The notes under the pieces: model-generated
The model's database searches: none
Seen by the model: only the letters and a program-made list of their open reading frames with translations
What the model was told of the DNA's origin: nothing
Position numbers and translations under genes: made by a program
In this document: positions 4,038-30,561 of the stretch, piece after piece
How positions within the stretch are numbered: the stretch's first letter is position 1
Layout: the number at the start of each line of letters is the position of its first letter
Virus record (IMG/VR): IMGVR_UViG_2529293142_000025
Coordinates: 1 to 30,932 of that record
Origin: a virus
Lineage: Duplodnaviria > Heunggongvirae > Uroviricota > Caudoviricetes
Direction: 5' to 3' (one strand)
Length of the DNA: 30,932 nucleotides

Positions 4038-4979
4038 TTAAATGCCATCAACGTACGAAATGGTTTCTTTGTACACTGGCTCGACTGCACCCAGCTTGCC
4101 GTAGTAAGTGACGATCTGATACAGACCGCGATACTGCACCGGCACGCTCTGAAGCGGAACCAGCGGGTAGCGGACGTATTTTTTATCGTTGGTGTACGCA
4201 ACCATGCGATCCTTATTCCCCACACCACGGCCTTTCAGCCATTTAACCGCGCGGATATTCAGCGGAACACCGTTCTGGTGATAGCTGATGGTGTTGGTCT
4301 GAAGGTACGTCAACAGGGACTGGTTACCCGCAGATGAAACGATGATGCTGGACAACAGAGCAAACTGCTCAGGCGGGATCAGCAAATCACGCGGAACCAC
4401 AGAGTAACCGGAAGCGGCCCACGCATCAGACAGCACCTGGTTAATGCTTGCGCGGATTTCGTCCGGTGTTGAGGTTGCCCACGTTTTGGCAGCGTTGTTG
4501 ACAGGCACACCGTCCAGGGTAACAAGACCTTTCAGGTTTAATGCGGAATCGCCAACATATACCTGTTCATCGTTATCCATCTGCCATTTCAGTTGCATAC
4601 CGTCATACTTCTGCGTATCAATCGGGCGGCCGACCTGCTGAGCAGCCTGCAATTCTATGACCGTCCAGCCAAGTTCCATCCCCCACAGGTTCAGCGGGTT
4701 ACCGGATTTGCCGATATCCACGTTCACGCCAGCAATAGCGGTTGAGTCTTTGCCTACCCAGTTTTTGCCATTCGGATTTGCACCAGTACCCGCAGCGGCG
4801 AAGCTGGTATTCGTCCAGCTGGAAATGTCATCTGCGATGGAGACATCTTCACGCAGTTGGATATCGCGGGTCCAGGTGTACCCCACCAGTGGCAGGTTCA
4901 GCGTCTGGTCGAGTCGCTCCAGCTCCCCGATGAGAAAGGCACCAGAGCTGTCAACGGTTGCCTGATCAAAAGTAATCAT
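4038..4979 (-). CDS. putative major capsid protein
   Basis: 313 aa ORF in the expected position after scaffold-like and decoration-like genes; typical size. Confidence 0.5.
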   Translation of the reverse strand: MITFDQATVDSSGAFLIGELERLDQTLNLPLVGYTWTRDIQLREDVSIADDISSWTNTSFAAAGTGANPNGKNWVGKDSTAIAGVNVDIGKSGNPLNLWGMELGWTVIELQAAQQVGRPIDTQKYDGMQLKWQMDNDEQVYVGDSALNLKGLVTLDGVPVNNAAKTWATSTPDEIRASINQVLSDAWAASGYSVVPRDLLIPPEQFALLSSIIVSSAGNQSLLTYLQTNTISYHQNGVPLNIRAVKWLKGRGVGNKDRMVAYTNDKKYVRYPLVPLQSVPVQYRGLYQIVTYYGKLGAVEPVYKETISYVDGI

Positions 4980-11416: not shown

Positions 11417-11800
11417 TCAGCGTTTCAACTGAAAGTGAGGCCCGTCTTTCAGTGTTTTCCAGTCCCCGCCCCATTCGATGGCAGTTCCCAGCTCTGCGGC
11501 AGCCTGCTTAAATGCCTGCGCGATTTTCTCGTACAGAGGCCAGTCCCATGACACCTGGCTGCCAATGTAGGCCACAACATCCACCGCATCACCGGTCAGG
11601 TGGCGGCTGTTCATGGTCTGGCTCTTGCCTTCTGCAACCAGCTGTTTCTGGCGTTCTTTCGTGCGCAGACCTTCTGTAACACCGAAATCAACCTCCGTCA
11701 GCTCCAGCGCACGGCGAACGACAGCAACCAGCTGTGGTTTGACGCCCTCCAGATTTTTTTCACTGCGACGACTGAATCTGAATTTACCCGACATGCTCAC
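11417..11800 (-). CDS. endolysin, peptidase M15 (L-alanyl-D-glutamate/D-Ala-D-Ala peptidase type)
   Basis: 127 aa with H..D and GGDW-type motifs of M15 peptidases; sits in the lysis cassette after holin genes. Confidence 0.65.
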   Translation of the reverse strand: MSMSGKFRFSRRSEKNLEGVKPQLVAVVRRALELTEVDFGVTEGLRTKERQKQLVAEGKSQTMNSRHLTGDAVDVVAYIGSQVSWDWPLYEKIAQAFKQAAAELGTAIEWGGDWKTLKDGPHFQLKR

Positions 11801-12072
11801 CTCCGGAATGAAAGGATTTTTGAAACGTTCCCGCGTGCGCGTATTACCAGCACGCAGAACAGCAAATTAAGCCCCACCGCCAGCCAGTTCGCCGCTAACG
11901 GGCGACCACACAGATAGCTGAGGGGCGCAAAGGCATACAGCAGCATCAGCAGCCAGGCCAGCCATGACATCAGCGGTTTGTGTCTGGAGTCACGACGACG
12001 ATAAAAAAAGAGCGTCAGCACGATAACCGTGCATAACGCCACATTCAGCAATCCGGGAAGGTTACTTAACAT
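11797..12072 (-). CDS. small multi-TM membrane protein (holin/antiholin-like)
   Basis: about 91 aa with 2-3 hydrophobic segments; ATGA coupling to endolysin start at 11797-11800. Confidence 0.4.
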   Translation of the reverse strand: MLSNLPGLLNVALCTVIVLTLFFYRRRDSRHKPLMSWLAWLLMLLYAFAPLSYLCGRPLAANWLAVGLNLLFCVLVIRARGNVSKILSFRR

Positions 12073-12454
12073 TGCCGCCTCCTCCACCCCGCAGGCGGGA
12101 GAACAGGCCGGACACCAGTGATGCGATATCCTGCTGGTGGATGAACGACAGAATCTTCACCGACACCACCGCCACCAGCACCGCACACAGTGCATCCGCA
12201 GATGTACCGTCATAACCTGTTTTTGATGCAATCCAGGCTGACAGTACACGCGCCCCCAGTACACCAACAATGAACGACACCAGAAAATGTGCCGCCACAC
12301 GCCAGGCTGAAATCTTCTGCGGCATCGTTGCCACAAACAACGCCCCGGCGAACGCACCAAACACAATCCCGAAATCCGTTCCGGTAAACAGCCCGAATAC
12401 CGTCGCCCCGCCGAGCGCCGCAGCCGTGCCGGAACCGGATAAGGGTTCAGACAT
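12062..12454 (-). CDS. putative holin
   Basis: 130 aa Gly/Ala-rich membrane protein starting MSEPLSGSGTAAALGG; AGGAG SD 8 nt upstream of ATG 12452-12454; the track ORF upstream extension is not supported. Confidence 0.5.
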   Translation of the reverse strand: MSEPLSGSGTAAALGGATVFGLFTGTDFGIVFGAFAGALFVATMPQKISAWRVAAHFLVSFIVGVLGARVLSAWIASKTGYDGTSADALCAVLVAVVSVKILSFIHQQDIASLVSGLFSRLRGGGGGNVK

Positions 12455-12472: not shown

Positions 12473-12494
12473 AAAAAAGGGCCACCAGCGGCCC
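12473..12494 (-). terminator. Rho-independent terminator between cargo cassette and holin
   Basis: minus-strand hairpin GGGCCGCTGGTGGCCC followed by TTTTTT. Confidence 0.5.
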
Positions 12495-12545
12495 GTAAAA
12501 AACAACACCCCGTCAAAGGCACCCGCAGATGCCTTTTGTGTGGTG

Positions 12546-12698
12546 TTATTCAGATTTGCGCAGTAAAGGCCGGAGTACGGCCAGCGCCATCGCCACCAGC
12601 ACACCATCTGCCAGCACCGACATCAGCCGTCCGGTGAAATCCACCACCACTACCAGAAACAGCAGGATGGCAGCCAGCACAAGGCGCGCACTTTTCAC
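12546..12698 (-). CDS. small hydrophobic protein (50 aa, two predicted TM segments)
   Basis: GTG start with GGAG SD 8 nt upstream, overlapping the stop of the TerB-like gene; VKSARLVLAAILLFLVVVVDF...; below the ORF-track size cutoff. Confidence 0.3.
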   Translation of the reverse strand: MKSARLVLAAILLFLVVVVDFTGRLMSVLADGVLVAMALAVLRPLLRKSE

Positions 12699-13120
12699 AG
12701 GTACTGCTCCAGCGGTAACTGCAGCGCCTGAGCAATTTTCTTGAGCTGTGCTTCTTCATCCGGACCAATGCCATCCTGGTCAGCGATATCCAGACACAGG
12801 CACAGCACATTAACTGCATCATCAGTACCGGCAACATCAGCCAGCTGACGAAGGGCTTCGGCATTGGCAGAACGCGGCGACGCTTCATAACGGGCGCGGA
12901 TATTTGCACTCATTTGTGCAATCTCACCGGAGAACGGCGCAAAGGCAGGAAGTGCTGCAATGGTTTTCTCCAGTACCGCGACTTCTTTCGCGTCACAGGT
13001 GTCGTCAGCATATGCAATGGAATACGCGCCCCAGACGGTCGCCTCCACTGCGTCGCGGTTCTCCATCTTCTTCACTTCGGTAATGGCCTTGCGGGTTTTC
13101 TTTTTGAAAATACCAAACAT
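12695..13120 (-). CDS. TerB-like domain protein (cargo gene)
   Basis: 141 aa; two repeats of the pattern hydrophobic-A-x-D-[DG]-x4-E (AYADDTCDAKE and DIADQDGIGPDEE) as in TerB/DjlA-N helical domains; memory-based. Confidence 0.45.
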   Translation of the reverse strand: MFGIFKKKTRKAITEVKKMENRDAVEATVWGAYSIAYADDTCDAKEVAVLEKTIAALPAFAPFSGEIAQMSANIRARYEASPRSANAEALRQLADVAGTDDAVNVLCLCLDIADQDGIGPDEEAQLKKIAQALQLPLEQYL

Positions 13121-13493
13121 CGTGACTTTTCCTTTTAGTGGGTGAGCCTGCGCCCGGGGGTGACCAGCCCACAGAGAAAGTCACACTGACCATCCCGTAA
13201 GCTCACCCCTGAAAGGCTCTGTGGTTTTTGATGTGCGCCGGGCGTGGCGCGAAGAAATGAAATAAAGCTTATCTGAAATTAAGGTTAATACGGGGATTTA
13301 AACCATTTTTAAAGCTTAGTAATATCAACTCGTCTCCCGGAGGAGACAGATGCTTATGATTCTTCACGGACTTTGTCCCGCGGCTTTAATCCGACGGCCG
13401 CGCCTTTTTTCACCCTCCCGCAAATTGCTAACCAAGGACCTTGTCCCACGAGTATTCCAGAATGCTCGTGTCTTTTTTTGTCCGGAGAAGAAA

Positions 13494-13518
13494 TAAAAAA
13501 ACCGCCCGGTGGAGGCGG
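13494..13518 (-). terminator. Rho-independent terminator downstream of the tRNA genes
   Basis: minus-strand hairpin CCGCCTCCACCGGGCGG followed by TTTTTTT. Confidence 0.5.
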
Positions 13519-13800
13519 TAAAGGATGTATTTCCAGGTTTTGCTTAGTATATGATTAATCTCAATGTCATTTTTAGCGATGTTTACAACATCGGGATGGC
13601 ACATCACCGACCCTGTCAGGAAATACAAAATCTCCACCGACAATGCGCCATTCCGATGTTATAAAAAAATCAGCACTGATACCGTAATAAATAACATTCA
13701 TTACAGGACGGGATGTAGTAAGGAGTCAGGGTAAAACAAAAACATCCCACACATATAATGTGTCAGTGCCTAACACAACCTAGCATCTATTGTCCTCTGC

Positions 13801-13875
<75 letters not shown>

Positions 13876-13878
13876 ATA

Positions 13879-13954
<76 letters not shown>

Positions 13955-14202
13955 ATTGGCTCTTCAGGGGAGCGATATCACCGCTCAAAGAAGAGTTCCC
14001 CCTCAGAGCCGTTTTCGATGATACGATTTAATACTCCAATCGCAACAACACCTTGCGTCAAGTTATGTAAATTTATTTATATGTTTTTATTTTATGTGAA
14101 TAATTCACTTTCACTTAAAATATAAATGACAATATATAAACAAATTTATTTTGAAGGCGATTATTAAATGTCGTTTCTGATATCACGCCCCAGAAACAAC
14201 AA

Positions 14203-14222
14203 AACCCGCTCAATGGCGGGTT
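14203..14222 (-). terminator. terminator after roi-like gene
   Basis: minus-strand hairpin AACCCGCCATTGAGCGGGTT followed by T-rich tract. Confidence 0.4.
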
Positions 14223-14317
14223 CTGGTAAAGTTCATGCGCTTGATTCGCCTCGCGATACAGCTTTGCGAAGCGTACCGGAATTGAAGCAGTTTATGGCTA
14301 AAATTGCAAGAACTTTT

Positions 14318-14929
14318 TTAAAGCTGCATCAGCCTTTCCACCAGTTTATCTCTGCGAACAACAAACCAACCATTGGCTCTCGCCAGTTCCAGCCATGACT
14401 CAAGGGAAATAACAATATCATCATCCCGCAACTGAATTGTGGAAACAGTGACACCGCCTCGCTGATAACAGAGAACTCGCGTGTCGTAACTTTTCTGGCA
14501 TGAAGCTGGCGCTGACAGATCCTTTTGTCTGAAATAGCAGTCTTCCAGTTTTTCGAACACATCCCACGCCTGATCGGTTTCGAGCATTTTGGCGTGACGG
14601 GCTGCGCCTCGTTCTGTCCAGAGGATAAGGGAGCGGGCTTTCGGGGAAATTTGTAACCCTCTTAAAGATGGTTGCAAATTTTGTGAGTTACTTAAAGTAA
14701 CCCGCAAATTTTGTGAGTAGTTTAAAGCTACCCGCAATTCTTTAAGGTCATTACCAACAACTTTGAAAAAGTGTTTCCCTTCAACGAAGCGTGCTTTGTT
14801 CTCATGATGATTCTGGCGAATACGCACCGGCTCAGTGCCGTAAAGCTGCGCCAAAAGTTCGGTGGTAATAACAGGAATCTGGTTATGGGTGATAGGGGAG
14901 AGAGTTTCAACAGAAATTTGAGTTGTCAT
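14318..14929 (-). CDS. antirepressor-like DNA-binding protein (KilA-N/ORF6N-type, Roi-like)
   Basis: 203 aa; N-terminal ...LLAQLYGTEPVRIRQNHHENKARFVEGKHFFKVVGNDLKEL and ...SLILWTERGAARHAKMLETDQAWDVFEKLE resemble the two halves of the KilA-N/ORF6N fold; first gene after the late promoter. Confidence 0.5.
   Translation of the reverse strand: MTTQISVETLSPITHNQIPVITTELLAQLYGTEPVRIRQNHHENKARFVEGKHFFKVVGNDLKELRVALNYSQNLRVTLSNSQNLQPSLRGLQISPKARSLILWTERGAARHAKMLETDQAWDVFEKLEDCYFRQKDLSAPASCQKSYDTRVLCYQRGGVTVSTIQLRDDDIVISLESWLELARANGWFVVRRDKLVERLMQL
14671..14733. repeat. about 30 bp tandem direct repeat (2.5 copies) inside the roi-like gene
   Basis: GGTTGCAAATTTTGTGAGTTACTTAAAGTAACC / CGCAAATTTTGTGAGTAGTTTAAAGCTACCC / GCAATTCTTTAAGG on plus strand. 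Confidence 0.7.
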
Positions 14930-15090
14930 AATGACGCCCTCTGGTGGTTTCTTAATAACTCACCACCGACGACGCCAATCGTCTGGTGGTGAACTGTGCA
15001 GGGTTGGCGTAACCGGGAAACCGACCGGCGCGGATCTCTCCGCCCCCACACAGCCCACCATAATTCAGATGTGCGCGTGCATACGACAAT

Positions 15091-15112
15091 AAAAAACACG
15101 CTCGCGGCGTGT
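15091..15112 (-). terminator. tR-prime-like terminator downstream of late promoter
   Basis: minus-strand hairpin ACACGCCGCGAGCGTGT followed by TTTTTTATT. Confidence 0.5.
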
Positions 15113-15173
15113 ATCTGTCGCGGTCTCTATCCAGGACGCCAATCCCGACGCCAGATTTTGCTGGCGCGTGAGG

Positions 15174-15203
15174 AATATAGCCCCGGATAACAGATTGAGT
15201 CAA
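15174..15203 (-). promoter_or_regulatory. late promoter (pR-prime-like), Q-dependent antitermination region
   Basis: minus strand TTGACT, 18 nt spacer, TATATT; the -35 overlaps the Q stop codon, as in lambda. Confidence 0.5.
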
Positions 15204-15754
15204 CAGACGGTTTTTAGATCCCCGGAAGAGAATGCATCACGCATCGGCAGATAGAGCATAAACTCTGCCATTTTCAACCACGCATCTATGCGATTACGGC
15301 ACGTGGCGTAACACCACTCAGGGTGTGAACCATTCAGCAATTCAGCCATTTTTCGCTTAGTCATCCCCCTCCCTTCATATCGTTGCCGGAGGATACAAAT
15401 CAATCCTGGGTGTTCTGCCAGCACTTCACTAATCACCCGATCAATGCATAACGCCTCTGAATCGGTACAATGTACCAGCCAGCTCTTTTGCTTGCCGTTA
15501 ATCATATCCCGCAAAAAAGCCTCAAGTTCAGGTTTGTCCAGACCTGCTTTTTTCATCCTCCGGAGCGCCTCGTTAATTGCCGTTTTTGTCAGCTTTTTAG
15601 AGGCCAGCAACTGGTTGAACATATTTCCCGTCTTACCGCCGCCAATATACGACCAGCGCCCCCACATGCGCAGTTTTCCCTGAATCCAGACACTTTCCAA
15701 CGTGGTGAGACGAAGGTGTTCCCCGCTTTTGCCTGTATTTGTTGGGTAAATCAT
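15200..15754 (-). CDS. late-gene antiterminator Q-like protein
   Basis: 184 aa from ATG 15752-15754; position at end of nin region directly before the late promoter; the N-terminal extension in the track ORF overlaps the upstream gene. Confidence 0.55.
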   Translation of the reverse strand: MIYPTNTGKSGEHLRLTTLESVWIQGKLRMWGRWSYIGGGKTGNMFNQLLASKKLTKTAINEALRRMKKAGLDKPELEAFLRDMINGKQKSWLVHCTDSEALCIDRVISEVLAEHPGLICILRQRYEGRGMTKRKMAELLNGSHPEWCYATCRNRIDAWLKMAEFMLYLPMRDAFSSGDLKTVC

Positions 15755-16041
15755 AAATAACCTTCCTTTCTCCAGATTTCTTGTGTGCGAAAAACACCTT
15801 CTGCATGCATCAGGCGCAATTCTTCTTTGGTGTAATCGCTGGTTTTTACCCGCCCGTCGATTAAATCGTGGCACGAGCTACAGGCAATCGCTGCCTGCAT
15901 ATCGTGTGGTTTTGTCGCTGTTCCGCACGTCCCCGCCAGCCTGTAATGCGCCAGCACAGATGTTTCGGGATTGTGATTGCAGTAGCCAGGAATTCTGACG
16001 GTGCACATCTGCCCCCGCGCCGCTTTACGTAAATCCACCAT
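15751..16041 (-). CDS. Cys-rich nin-region protein (YbcO/DUF1364-like)
   Basis: 96 aa with several Cys/His (CTVRIPGYCNH...CSSCHDL); stop overlaps Q start. Confidence 0.45.
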   Translation of the reverse strand: MVDLRKAARGQMCTVRIPGYCNHNPETSVLAHYRLAGTCGTATKPHDMQAAIACSSCHDLIDGRVKTSDYTKEELRLMHAEGVFRTQEIWRKEGYL

Positions 16042-17198: not shown

Positions 17199-17354
17199 TT
17201 ACTCCTCAGGTTCGTAAGCTGTGAAGACAACGACCTCCGTCTGGCCGGTTCGGATTCGTACCTCGCAGAGGTCTTTCCTCGTTACCAGTGCCGTCACAAT
17301 GACGGTTAAACAGATGACGATCAGGGCGATTAACATCGCCTTTTGCTGCTTCAT
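17199..17354 (-). CDS. hok: Hok/Gef family type I toxin
   Basis: 51 aa MKQQKAMLIALIVICLTVIVTALVTRKDLCEVRIRTGQTEVVVFTAYEPEE; an in-frame upstream mok-like extension starts at 17411; structured leader with inverted repeats at 17451-17490. Confidence 0.8.
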   Translation of the reverse strand: MKQQKAMLIALIVICLTVIVTALVTRKDLCEVRIRTGQTEVVVFTAYEPEE

Positions 17355-17542
17355 AGCCTGCTTCTCCTTGACCTTTCGGTCCGTAAGAGGCAATCTATAT
17401 GTGTCTAGCATATAGGGGCCTCACTTCGATTTATAGTCGGGTGGGGCTTTTATCTATCTGCCGTTGGTGTTCATGCCTGAGGCAGATAGCCTCAAGCACC
17501 CGCAGCAATTCTACTTAACTCTCCTTTTCCCGCAAACCGTTT

Positions 17543-28380: not shown

Positions 28381-28587
28381 ATGACAAAAATTATGAGATA
28401 TGACGATGTTAAACCATGTCCGTTTTGTGGTTGTCCATCTGTTACAGTGAAAGCAATTTCAGGATATTACCGGGCAAAATGCAACGGATGCGAATCCCGA
28501 ACTGGCTATGGTGGAAGTGAAAAAGAAGCACTCGAAAGATGGAATAAACGAACTACTGGAAATAATAATGGAGGTGTTCATGTATAA
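28381..28587 (+). CDS. ralR: restriction alleviation protein RalR/Lar-like, Cys4 zinc-ribbon
   Basis: MTKIMRYDDVKPCPFCGCPSVTVKAISGYYRAKCNGCESRTGYGG...; start at internal ATG 28381. Confidence 0.6.
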   Translation: MTKIMRYDDVKPCPFCGCPSVTVKAISGYYRAKCNGCESRTGYGGSEKEALERWNKRTTGNNNGGVHV

Positions 28588-28768
28588 AATAACTGCCACT
28601 ATTGAAAAAGAAGGTGGCACTCCTACTAACTGGACAAGATATTCAAAATCTAAATTAACGAAATCAGAATGCGAAAAAATGCTCTCAGGGAAAAAAGAAG
28701 CAGGCGTGTCCAGAGAGCAGAAAGTAAAGCTGATAAATTTTAATTGCGAGAAACTTCTGTCCTCGTGA
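28580..28768 (+). CDS. ydaC: YdaC-like small protein
   Basis: 62 aa MYKITATIEKEGGTPTNWTRYSK...; GGAGGTG SD 5 nt upstream. Confidence 0.55.
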   Translation: MYKITATIEKEGGTPTNWTRYSKSKLTKSECEKMLSGKKEAGVSREQKVKLINFNCEKLLSS

Positions 28769-30245: not shown

Positions 30246-30348
30246 AAAAAAGACCGGAATACAGAAATTCGAGTAAATTTCGAGTAATTTCGGGGAGACG
30301 TTTGCAACTAATTGATTTTAAATACAATTAAAAAAAGACCGAATACGA
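30246..30348. repeat. imperfect direct repeat AAAAAAGACCG(G)AATAC (30246-30263 and 30330-30348) flanking 11 bp tandem TTCGAGTAA units; candidate att core/arm sites at the prophage junction
   Basis: the second copy is the 3-prime half of the SdsR terminator; the first lies 86 bp toward int. Confidence 0.4.
30301..30328 (+). promoter_or_regulatory. sigma-70 promoter for RyeA
   Basis: TTTGCA, 16 nt spacer, TACAAT. Confidence 0.45.
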
Positions 30349-30432
30349 TTCCTGTATTCGGTCCAGGGAAATGGCTCTTGGGAGAGAGCCGTGCGCTAAA
30401 AGTTGGCATTAATGCAGGCTTAGTTGCCTTGC
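30330..30432 (-). ncRNA. sdsR: SdsR (RyeB) small RNA
   Basis: about 103 nt on minus strand starting GCAAGGCAACUAAGCCUGCAUUAAUGCC..., ending in hairpin GACCGAAUACAGGAAUCGUAUUCGGUC plus U7; sigma-S-like -10 TCTATTCTTAA just upstream; identity from memory. Confidence 0.6.
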
Positions 30433-30561
30433 CCTTTAAGAATAGATGACGACGCCAGGTTTTCCAGTTTGCGTGCAAAATGGTCAATAAAAAGCGTGGT
30501 GGTCATCAGCTGAAATGTTAAAAACCGCCCGTTCTGGTGAAAGAACTGAGGCGGTTTTTTT
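30336..30561 (+). ncRNA. ryeA: RyeA (SraC) small RNA, antisense to SdsR
   Basis: plus-strand transcript predicted from the TTTGCA/TACAAT promoter to the terminator at 30521-30561; fully overlaps sdsR on the opposite strand. Confidence 0.45.
30521..30561. terminator. bidirectional Rho-independent terminator (RyeA on plus, yebY on minus)
   Basis: hairpin AAAACCGCC...GGCGGTTTTTTT with U-tracts on both strands. Confidence 0.55.

Follow-up and report, generated by a model that had tools for sequence, protein, structure and literature searches.

A lambdoid-prophage counterpart of the phage P1 tciA-tciB gene pair with a conserved structured leader RNA

Introduction

Phage P1 carries three accessory genes annotated as tciA, tciB, and tciC, which are placed between its tRNA genes and ban, downstream of the C1-controlled Pban. 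The tciABC genes form a hypervariable region in P1-like phage-plasmids (PMC9603915). Here we describe a related pair, a TerB-family gene (tciA) followed by a DUF3927-family gene (tciB), in a 30,932-nt stretch of DNA from a virus of the Caudoviricetes (Duplodnaviria; Heunggongvirae; Uroviricota; IMG/VR record IMGVR_UViG_2529293142_000025, positions 1 to 30,932). The whole stretch is referred to as the window. The pair and the leader RNA in front of it are laid out as follows:

12546..12698, minus strand: tciB, 50-aa open reading frame (ORF), DUF3927, two-transmembrane (two-TM) hairpin, GTG start
12695..13120, minus strand: tciA, 141-aa ORF, TerB family, all-helical
13121..13252, minus strand: conserved structured leader RNA upstream of the tciA ATG

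Two other described systems bear on this locus. For the ter operon, the proposed core unit is a complex of TerC and TerB, terC affects phage resistance, and insertions in ter abolish the phage-inhibition and colicin-resistance phenotypes (PMC12054061). In prophage Sp10 of E. coli Sakai, the position of ECs_1959 has been described as a PR' moron site, with convergent small RNA (sRNA) genes such as AgvB just downstream (Tree et al. 2014; PMC4104026).

The cassette is a known gene pair that travels as a block

Judging from sequence similarity, the cassette is almost certainly a lambdoid-prophage copy of the P1 tciA-tciB accessory pair. By BLASTP, TciA is 84% identical to P1 TciA over 141 aa and TciB is 49% identical to P1 TciB over 47 aa, and a DNA search with the cassette leads to tciA of P1. 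The 141-aa protein matched Pfam TerB (PF05099) at 28.5 bits (gathering score 24.4) and PHROG 632, 'tellurite resistance' (1.4e-63). The 50-aa protein matched Pfam DUF3927 (PF13064), a family of proteins of about 50-66 aa, at 52.6 bits (cutoff 25) over residues 4-48 of 50, and PHROG 1470, 'TciB-like' (1.2e-23). Thus a search with hidden Markov models, which had been proposed together with the initial annotation of the window, placed both proteins above the Pfam cut-off. The ORF list and the sequence showed that the GTG start of tciB and the stop codon of tciA share the four letters GTGA. That annotation had described a TerB-like gene and a translationally coupled 50-aa two-TM ORF, and the ORFs, the GTGA overlap, the Pfam matches, and the hydrophobic peaks of TciB agree with it.

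The same annotation had put the cassette forward as an undescribed accessory module. This did not hold, since the cassette itself is a known and widely annotated gene pair, found in P1 and in the two PHROG families above. The exact TciA and TciB sequences were already present in 188 and 80 NCBI contigs, respectively, under the names 'tellurite resistance TerB family protein' and 'DUF3927 family protein', and the Prokaryotic Genome Annotation Pipeline (PGAP) annotates the pair in hundreds of genomes. Cassette DNA matched 553 of 5426 complete E. coli genomes (~10%). In Sakai prophage Sp10, ECs_1959 is annotated as a 'TciA/TerB-like protein'. As for the third P1 gene, tblastn with P1 TciC matched only P1-type loci (L001 and L010), and in the window tciB is followed by terminators.

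Near-identical tciAB DNA was also found under unexpected labels. Three records (L004, L009, and L013) are labeled as a Bacillota metagenome-assembled genome, Pseudomonas lundensis, and Kocuria sabuli, and a fourth (L002, PP818812.1), 'Actinobacillus phage vB_Apl-pPE4', likewise carries near-identical enterobacterial tciAB DNA. Mis-binning of, or contamination with, E. coli-type prophage DNA probably accounts for these four records.

A comparison of ~90 loci showed that tciA, tciB, the ~130-nt leader, and the 3' terminators travel together as one block, which extends from 13251-13262 to ~12466, the latter end being set by relatives with different downstream genes. The terminators in and around the block are:

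12479..12494, minus strand: downstream terminator, GGGCC-GCUGGU-GGCCC with a 6 bp stem, followed by U6; from the terminator scan
12547..12504, minus strand: compound stem-loop with a U-run at 12502..12497, adjoining the tciB stop codon; read directly from the sequence and not by the scan
13501..13519, minus strand: upstream rho-independent terminator, ACCGCCUCCACCGGGCGGU with a 7 bp stem, followed by U7; from the terminator scan

The 3' untranslated region (UTR) of tciB (12479..12547, minus strand) therefore consists of tandem terminators, the larger stem with its U-run (12547..12497) and then 12494..12479. There are 15 terminator-like sites in the region, compared with 5.2 ± 2.0 in shuffled sequences. 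The two minus-strand terminators that had initially been placed on either side of the cassette (13519..13501 and 12494..12479) are both present. The upstream one lies outside the block that travels with tciAB, as homology in most relatives begins only at 13251-13262.

A structured leader RNA upstream of tciA

The leader (13252..13121) covers 130-140 nt from the block boundary to the ATG of tciA and is much more conserved than tciA itself. Relative to the O157-type allele, nucleotide identity is 87% for the leader and 47-60% for the body of tciA, and the amino acid identity of TciA is only 43%. BLAST found the leader in 233 of 256 fetched loci, and 1222 of 5426 complete E. coli genomes contain it; the window has one copy only. 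Rfam 15 gave no credible match in 13121-13262, where the best overlapping hits scored 13-15 bits with E > 6, and a scan of 5.5 kb gave nothing over the leader at E <= 1. Nor was the leader sequence found printed in the literature searched. As far as we have checked, the leader is unreported and is the only new element of the cassette.

Two other explanations of this sequence were rejected. A 62-aa ORF overlapping the leader (13193..13005) is not likely to be coding, because its ATG is lost in other clades. Neither the leader nor the tciB 3' UTR is PasA, PasC, PasD, AgvB, AsxR, or STnc100, as BLAST with the Pas sequences of E2348/69 and Rfam were both negative.

RNAalifold on 86 distinct leader copies yielded three nested helices, namely E, A, and an apical hairpin H. 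A covariance model was built on this structure and was then used to find diverged copies in the fetched sequence. The pairings in the window (all minus strand) and their counterparts in diverged copies are:

13250-13246 with 13239-13235: 5' hairpin P1; window GCGCC/GGCGC; diverged copies UGCGC/GCGCA and UCGCUU/AAGCGA
13244-13238 with 13157-13151: helix E; window CGCCCG/CGGGCG; diverged copies UCUCAC/GUGAGA, UGCCCA/UGGGCA, and UCGCAC/GUGCGA
13224-13217 with 13176-13169: helix A; window CCACAGAG/CUCUGUGG; diverged copies CAGAGAG/CUCUCUG and ACCACAA/UUGUGGU
13191-13187 with 13183-13179: apical hairpin H
13208-13200 with 13148-13140: long-range helix B, crossing A and E; window GGGUGAGCU/GGCUCACCC; diverged copies GAUGAGCCUUG/CAAGGUUCAUC and AAGCGAGCCUG/CAGGCUCACUU
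13216-13212: CCUUU, resembling an anti-Shine-Dalgarno (anti-SD) sequence, facing the Shine-Dalgarno (SD) sequence AAAGG at 13135-13131

Four leader helices are supported by covariation. In an alignment of 24 sequences, both sides had changed in 20 of 28 pairs, compared with 8.6 ± 1.9 in shuffles (none of 500 shuffles reached the observed value). Moreover, 90.8% of cells were paired, versus 30-52% when the partners were slid. Helices P1 and B were absent from the model that made this alignment.

These results bear on the question of whether the leader is a mere recombination linker or boundary sequence that has been kept similar by module exchange among lambdoid phages. Such a linker would fit the sharp boundary at 13251-13262, where many different upstream contexts join, and the occurrence of the same leader before TciA alleles that share only 43% identity; most of the sequences also fall in few clades, so that few independent changes were sampled. 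However, the diverged copies keep the four helices with both strands changed, P1 and B are supported though they lie outside the alignment model, and the fold is retained, with scores of about 50-60 bits, in copies that precede unrelated antirepressor genes. We consider it quite improbable that the leader is only a linker.

The diverged copies were found in several contexts. On a metagenomic lambdoid contig (L261), a diverged leader lies upstream of a TciA that is 38% identical to that of the window. Other loci have a diverged second copy (42-61 bits) that ends at the ATG of an antirepressor-type gene past the lysis genes:

L259 (Sakai Sp10), 4423-4558: diverged leader before ECs_1965, which has a P22_AR_N domain
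L054, 6098-6233: diverged leader before a gene with a KilAC ANT domain
L002, 3341-3207: diverged leader before a gene with a KilA-N domain
L006, 6481-6596: diverged leader before a gene for an unassigned 246-aa protein

That the leader stands before tciA as well as before antirepressor genes hints that accessory genes located in late operons may have a form of post-transcriptional control in common. A decayed chromosomal copy was seen in E. coli FORC_029 (L095, 3001-3242), near hypT and with insertion sequence (IS) elements around it; there the leader, at 72% identity, directly precedes a DUF3927 pseudogene and tciA has been lost. Including this copy, 282 of the 1227 records with leader matches are in the 60-80% identity band.

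Because helix B crosses helices A and E, the leader may form a pseudoknot or act as a two-state switch with an alternative fold. A conserved C(C/U)UUU lies directly 5' of one B strand and can pair with the SD sequence AAAGG that lies 3' of the other; this anti-SD pairing is possible in all 24 copies. The minimum free energy of the leader is -54.4 kcal/mol. With E and A enforced it is -43.3 kcal/mol, and with B enforced the best nested fold is -51.6 kcal/mol and includes the anti-SD pairing. Since the B-enforced fold forms this pairing, a translational gate is plausible, and the folding models suggest that the leader could control the translation of tciA.

A broader proposal, which we regard as doubtful, is that the leader represents an uncatalogued class of cis-regulatory RNAs of lambdoid prophages, with TciAB as a minimal TerB system of two genes that could show how TerB domains act at the membrane. 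The leader would then be a pseudoknotted or two-state switch in which the E/A stem and the CCUUU anti-SD sequence beside helix B are in competition. Such a switch would gate accessory genes of late operons, such as tciA and several types of antirepressor, in response to a signal that might be, for example, a trans-acting RNA, a protein, temperature, or an ion.

TciA is a TerB homolog and TciB is its usual neighbor

TciA is a full-length homolog of the TerB of ter operons, with ~30% identity to canonical TerB. A single TciA sequence compared with PDB sequences gave nothing meaningful, only spurious matches to PNPase. A profile of the TciA family (100 members) matched the nuclear magnetic resonance (NMR) structure of Klebsiella pneumoniae TerB, 2JXU, with E = 2e-28, and the match spans residues 6-142 of the profile and residues 12-149 of the 153-residue chain. 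Thus TerB can be reached from TciA by PDB sequence search only with a family profile. The AlphaFold2 model of TciA is a six-helix bundle with a predicted local distance difference test (pLDDT) score of 89.4. Its best structural match in the PDB by Foldseek was the TerB-like protein 2h5n (probability 1.0, TM-score 0.51-0.57, E = 0.08); the same search did not retrieve 2JXU.

The TciA family is small, with 151 representatives at E <= 1e-3 among 1.84 billion sequences. An N-terminal MFG(I/L)F.KK motif is common to its members, as are two acidic motifs of the form '(A)DG-x5-E'. In the alignment of 100 sequences, the consensus ADG.....E occurs twice, and at least 90% of the sequences keep E46, A113, and E122. 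The two acidic motifs, whose glutamates E46 and E122 hardly vary in the family, form a putative metal site.

TciB has hydrophobic peaks at residues ~4-20 and ~25-42. It has an invariant D20-F21 at the end of the first TM segment, an aspartate (D31) inside the second, and basic N- and C-termini. In ~90 loci fetched with the TciA of the window as query, a TciB homolog directly follows TciA in all but two, of which one is a contig that is truncated. The small ORF is therefore kept in homologous loci, a point on which the initial annotation had asked for a check. Three more distant TciA relatives (L260, L261, and L262; 33-40% identity) also have a DUF3927-like small ORF downstream, which the gene caller had missed in two of them. 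The pairing of TerB with a DUF3927-like peptide is thus kept down to TciA identities of 33-43%. Distant relatives of TciA are found in phage-like surroundings with HNH, TerL, NinG, and Q genes.

The partner of TciA can also be a different membrane protein. On L263-L265 (3001-4581), which are ~78-kb phage- or plasmid-like contigs, the gene after that of a TciA relative (34% identity) encodes a 360-aa Na_Ca_ex (CaCA) transporter in place of a DUF3927 peptide. By analogy, TciA may be a cytoplasmic TerB-fold protein that acts at the inner membrane through a small or a large membrane partner. The DUF3927 peptide, in turn, is a membrane module able to serve other partners, as can be seen in prophage PP2 of E2348/69, to which we return below. 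In that prophage, the published sRNA PasD2 begins 40 nt past the DUF3927 stop codon. One candidate fusion of the two proteins, P0052 (196 aa, with PF05099 and PF13064), was not used, since it comes from a single contig and is most likely a P1-type sequence with a frameshift at the overlapping stop and start codons.

The cassette occupies a cargo slot shared with stx

The genes around the cassette in the window are as follows:

11417..11800, minus strand: M15 endolysin gene, lysis cassette
11797..12087, minus strand: Phage_holin_3_7 gene, lysis cassette
12062..12454, minus strand: Phage_holin_8 gene, the first lysis gene downstream; Pfam/PHROG scan
13801..13954, minus strand: tRNA-Thr(UGU) and tRNA-Gly(UCC), upstream of the cassette in the same late-operon orientation
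14318..14929, minus strand: ORF6N antirepressor gene, upstream of the tRNA genes
15200..15874, minus strand: Q-type antiterminator gene (DUF1133 / Phage_antitermQ), upstream; Pfam/PHROG

In phage phiP27 (L268, 4584-4697 and 4874-6109), the gene order is tRNA-Ile, tRNA-Arg, stxA2e/stxB2e, a tciB remnant, and the same holin-holin-M15 cassette. The remnant is a frameshifted 3' end of tciB; together with the 3'-UTR hairpins, which are also retained, it separates stxB2e from the holin gene. Thus stx2e stands exactly where tciA and the 5' portion of tciB would be, and it has apparently displaced them. This gene order bears out the proposal, made from the window alone, that the cassette is in a position used by stx-type cargo. 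In phiSTEC1575-Stx2k, homology to the window ends at 12499, in the terminator, and other genes precede the same lysis cassette. O157 prophages have Q (DUF1133), tRNA-Ile, tRNA-Arg, leader, TerB, and DUF3927 in succession, and then the nanS-p esterase gene. Two features of morons were thus found in the cassette, an interchangeable location (stx2e in phiP27 and other genes in phiSTEC1575-Stx2k, with sharp block boundaries) and its own terminator (12494..12479 together with the stem and U-run upstream of it).

The proximity to the lysis genes raises the possibility that TciB is a holin- or antiholin-like peptide and TciA its cytoplasmic regulator, which together tune the adjacent two-holin system. 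In most close relatives the Hol8-Hol3-M15 cassette immediately follows the pair, TciB is small (50 aa) with two TM segments and charged ends, and the pair would be co-transcribed with the lysis genes if it is read by Q-modified polymerase. However, in P1 the pair belongs to the ban operon, where tRNA genes and ban flank it, and the 6.4 kb examined there contain no lysis gene. In O157 prophages, tciB and the holin gene are set apart by the 1.85-kb esterase gene together with sRNA genes, other loci have different downstream genes, and tandem terminators part tciB from the holin gene. Moreover, a Na/Ca exchanger replaces TciB in L263, and TciB has no match to PHROG lysis families. A role in lysis timing therefore seems improbable to us.

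Other RNA elements of the window were noted. Antitoxin RNAs were found at 28586-28764 (RalA) and 17352-17501 (sok), and the host SraC/RyeA-SdsR/RyeB pair lies at 30326-30470, at the end of the window, indicating that the prophage abuts the ryeA/ryeB chromosomal locus.

Expression of tciAB

The initial annotation had treated the cassette as a self-contained unit with an AT-rich candidate promoter upstream of tciA, and neither claim was confirmed. A consensus scan found no sigma-70-like promoter on the minus strand in 13120-13500, and the best site of a laxer, home-made scan had 7 of 12 matches. As neither scan gave anything convincing, a promoter of its own was rejected for the cassette. The AT-rich stretch (13263-13330) is outside the conserved block. 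Furthermore, in most relatives a rho-independent terminator, whose stem sequence varies, directly abuts the front of the block at the leader. The lack of a promoter and the abutting terminator suggest that the cassette is insulated late-operon cargo that is read by Q-antiterminated polymerase. By analogy with other lambdoid phages, the Q-type antiterminator of the window would be the presumed driver of this read-through, and tciAB is probably expressed late, in lytic growth. In P1, tciABC was induced during P1vir infection, which, together with the C1-controlled placement of these genes, agrees with lytic-phase expression.

The P1 gene names and the initial annotation imply another arrangement, in which the pair is lysogenic-conversion cargo with a promoter of its own that is active in the repressed prophage, and makes the lysogen resistant to tellurite, colicins, or phages. 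TciA is indeed a TerB homolog, and the ter cluster confers phage inhibition and colicin resistance (PMC12054061). The cassette is in a moron slot used by stx, it has terminators on both flanks like a classical moron, and TciA is hypervariable, as expected of a conflict gene. What argues against this arrangement is that there is no sigma-70-like promoter between the upstream terminator and tciA, that the AT-rich stretch is not part of the conserved block, and that a terminator directly abuts the leader in most relatives. The C1 repressor controls the genes in P1, and TerB alone is not known as a resistance determinant (PMC12054061). Lysogenic conversion is thus an unlikely role for the pair, though we rate it above lysis timing.

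On the opposite strand, 13297-13480 might encode a small transcript that would be antisense to the late operon. A weak promoter, TTTAAA-17-TAATAT (8/12), is present there, as are a hairpin (13331-13348) and further, terminator-like hairpins (~13378-13412 and 13447-13470), and the 152-nt fold has z = -3.0. The stretch is outside the conserved tciAB block. Within it, a 46-nt hairpin plus T-run (13368-13413) has ~92% identity to unannotated DNA between yodB and tRNA-Ser (serU) in 5418 of 5426 complete E. coli genomes. The serU gene is a phage integration site.

A proposed role for TciA and TciB

Taken together, we favor with moderate confidence a late-transcribed, leader-gated tciAB block that encodes a membrane-docked TerB-fold complex protecting ion homeostasis. 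Under this proposal, tciAB would be transcribed mainly by Q-antiterminated late RNA polymerase, that is, in lytic growth, and the leader would gate translation through pairing of the conserved CCUUU with the SD sequence next to helix B. TciA would be a cytoplasmic TerB-fold protein with acidic motifs that probably binds divalent cations. TciB may dock TciA on the inner membrane, as has been proposed for TerB on TerC; we rate a membrane-tethered TciA-TciB complex as slightly more probable than not. The complex might buffer the membrane and ion homeostasis against depolarizing insults, such as the entry of superinfecting phage DNA, pore-forming colicins, or membrane-acting abortive-infection effectors, and in this way would protect a productive infection and its lysis schedule. 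This physiological role is much more tentative than the complex itself. It is suggested indirectly by what has been described for the ter cluster (phage inhibition and a phenotype with pore-forming colicins) and for terC (a phage phenotype), and by the Na/Ca-exchanger partner in a distant relative and the hypervariability of TciA.

Several observations weigh against this proposal. The anti-SD pairing showed no independent covariation in the 24 copies. The promoter scans were limited to the sigma-70 consensus, so an activator-dependent or alternative-sigma promoter would have been missed. In prophage PP2 of E2348/69 (L257, 1630-2835), the DUF3927 gene follows a gene for a 247-aa multi-TM protein that is not TerB, which indicates that TciB is not exclusive to TciA. 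TerC-TerD has been reported as the minimal tellurite-resistance unit, and TerB without TerC or TerD has no demonstrated activity (PMC12054061). P1 tciABC was non-essential by CRISPR interference (CRISPRi) and dispensable for plaque formation (PMC10695390), and no experiment on a tciA or tciB phenotype was found in the literature searched. PADLOC-DB 2.0 had no family for TciA or TciB at E <= 1 and NCBIfam had no model matching either protein, and membership of a known defense system was rejected on these grounds. The names given in P1 reflect homology only, in keeping with the initial annotation, which had assigned no function to the pair.

Comparison with known systems

The leader can be compared with the RNAs that control antirepressors (P1/P7 c4 RNA and Gifsy-1 IsrK) and with SD-sequestering leaders. 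Like them, it precedes antirepressor-type genes, in addition to tciA, and it has a conserved pyrimidine stretch that can pair with the SD sequence. It differs in that it has no sequence or model similarity to C4, c4-a1b1, isrK, or other Rfam 15 families. A unit of this known type is present elsewhere in the window. At 14982-15180 (minus strand), directly downstream of the Q-like gene, Rfam families were matched by isrK-like (75.5 bits), c4 a1/b1 target-like (50.5 bits), and C4 antisense RNA-like (66.7 bits) elements, followed by the ORF6N antirepressor gene (14318-14929, minus strand) and a terminator (14225..14200). This stretch is an antirepressor control unit similar to P1/P7 immI or Gifsy-1 IsrK inside the late region.

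With the morons of the PR' slot, namely stx in phiP27 and Stx2 phages and ECs_1959 in Sakai Sp10 with AgvB, the cassette shares the position between Q/tRNA and lysis genes and a terminator at its 3' end, and it is interchangeable with stx2e before the same lysis cassette. It differs from them in having no detected promoter of its own. AgvB, AsxR, and Pas sRNAs were not found in the window by Rfam scans or by BLAST with the Pas sequences. The stx slot of lambdoid phages is commonly filled by tciAB, and its apparent displacement by stx2e in phiP27 is of use in reconstructing how toxin phages arose.

Compared with tciABC of P1, the pair is similar in both proteins, including VDFT...SVL(A/S)DG motifs shared by the TciB sequences, and also in the start-to-stop overlap of the genes, the nearby tRNA genes, and, probably, lytic-phase control. 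On the other hand, the window has no tciC, and its genes are in a presumably Q-dependent late operon by the holins, whereas those of P1 are in the C1-controlled ban operon. The structured leader is present in the window and absent from P1.

TciA and the TerB of terZABCDEF (IncHI2 plasmid R478; K. pneumoniae, 2JXU) belong to one fold family over the full length, are alike in size (~150 aa), and share the paired '(A)DG-x5-E' acidic motifs, and the proposed membrane partnership is analogous to that of TerB with TerC. The surroundings are different. None of the seven neighboring ORFs scanned is TerC, TerD, TerZ, TerA, or TerE; the neighbors are a Q-like gene, an ORF6N antirepressor gene, tRNA genes, two holin genes, and an M15 endolysin gene, and related loci are alike. 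The partner of TciA is a 50-aa hairpin, unlike the large integral membrane protein TerC. What is added here to the known pair is its exact equivalence with the stx2e slot, the deep pairing of TerB with a small membrane protein, and a covariation-supported leader that is absent from Rfam. To our knowledge, TerB has been without a mechanism for about 30 years. A two-gene module of TerB and a two-TM protein, in which a Na/Ca exchanger is the alternative partner in a distant relative, offers a far simpler test bed for it than the seven-gene ter operon.

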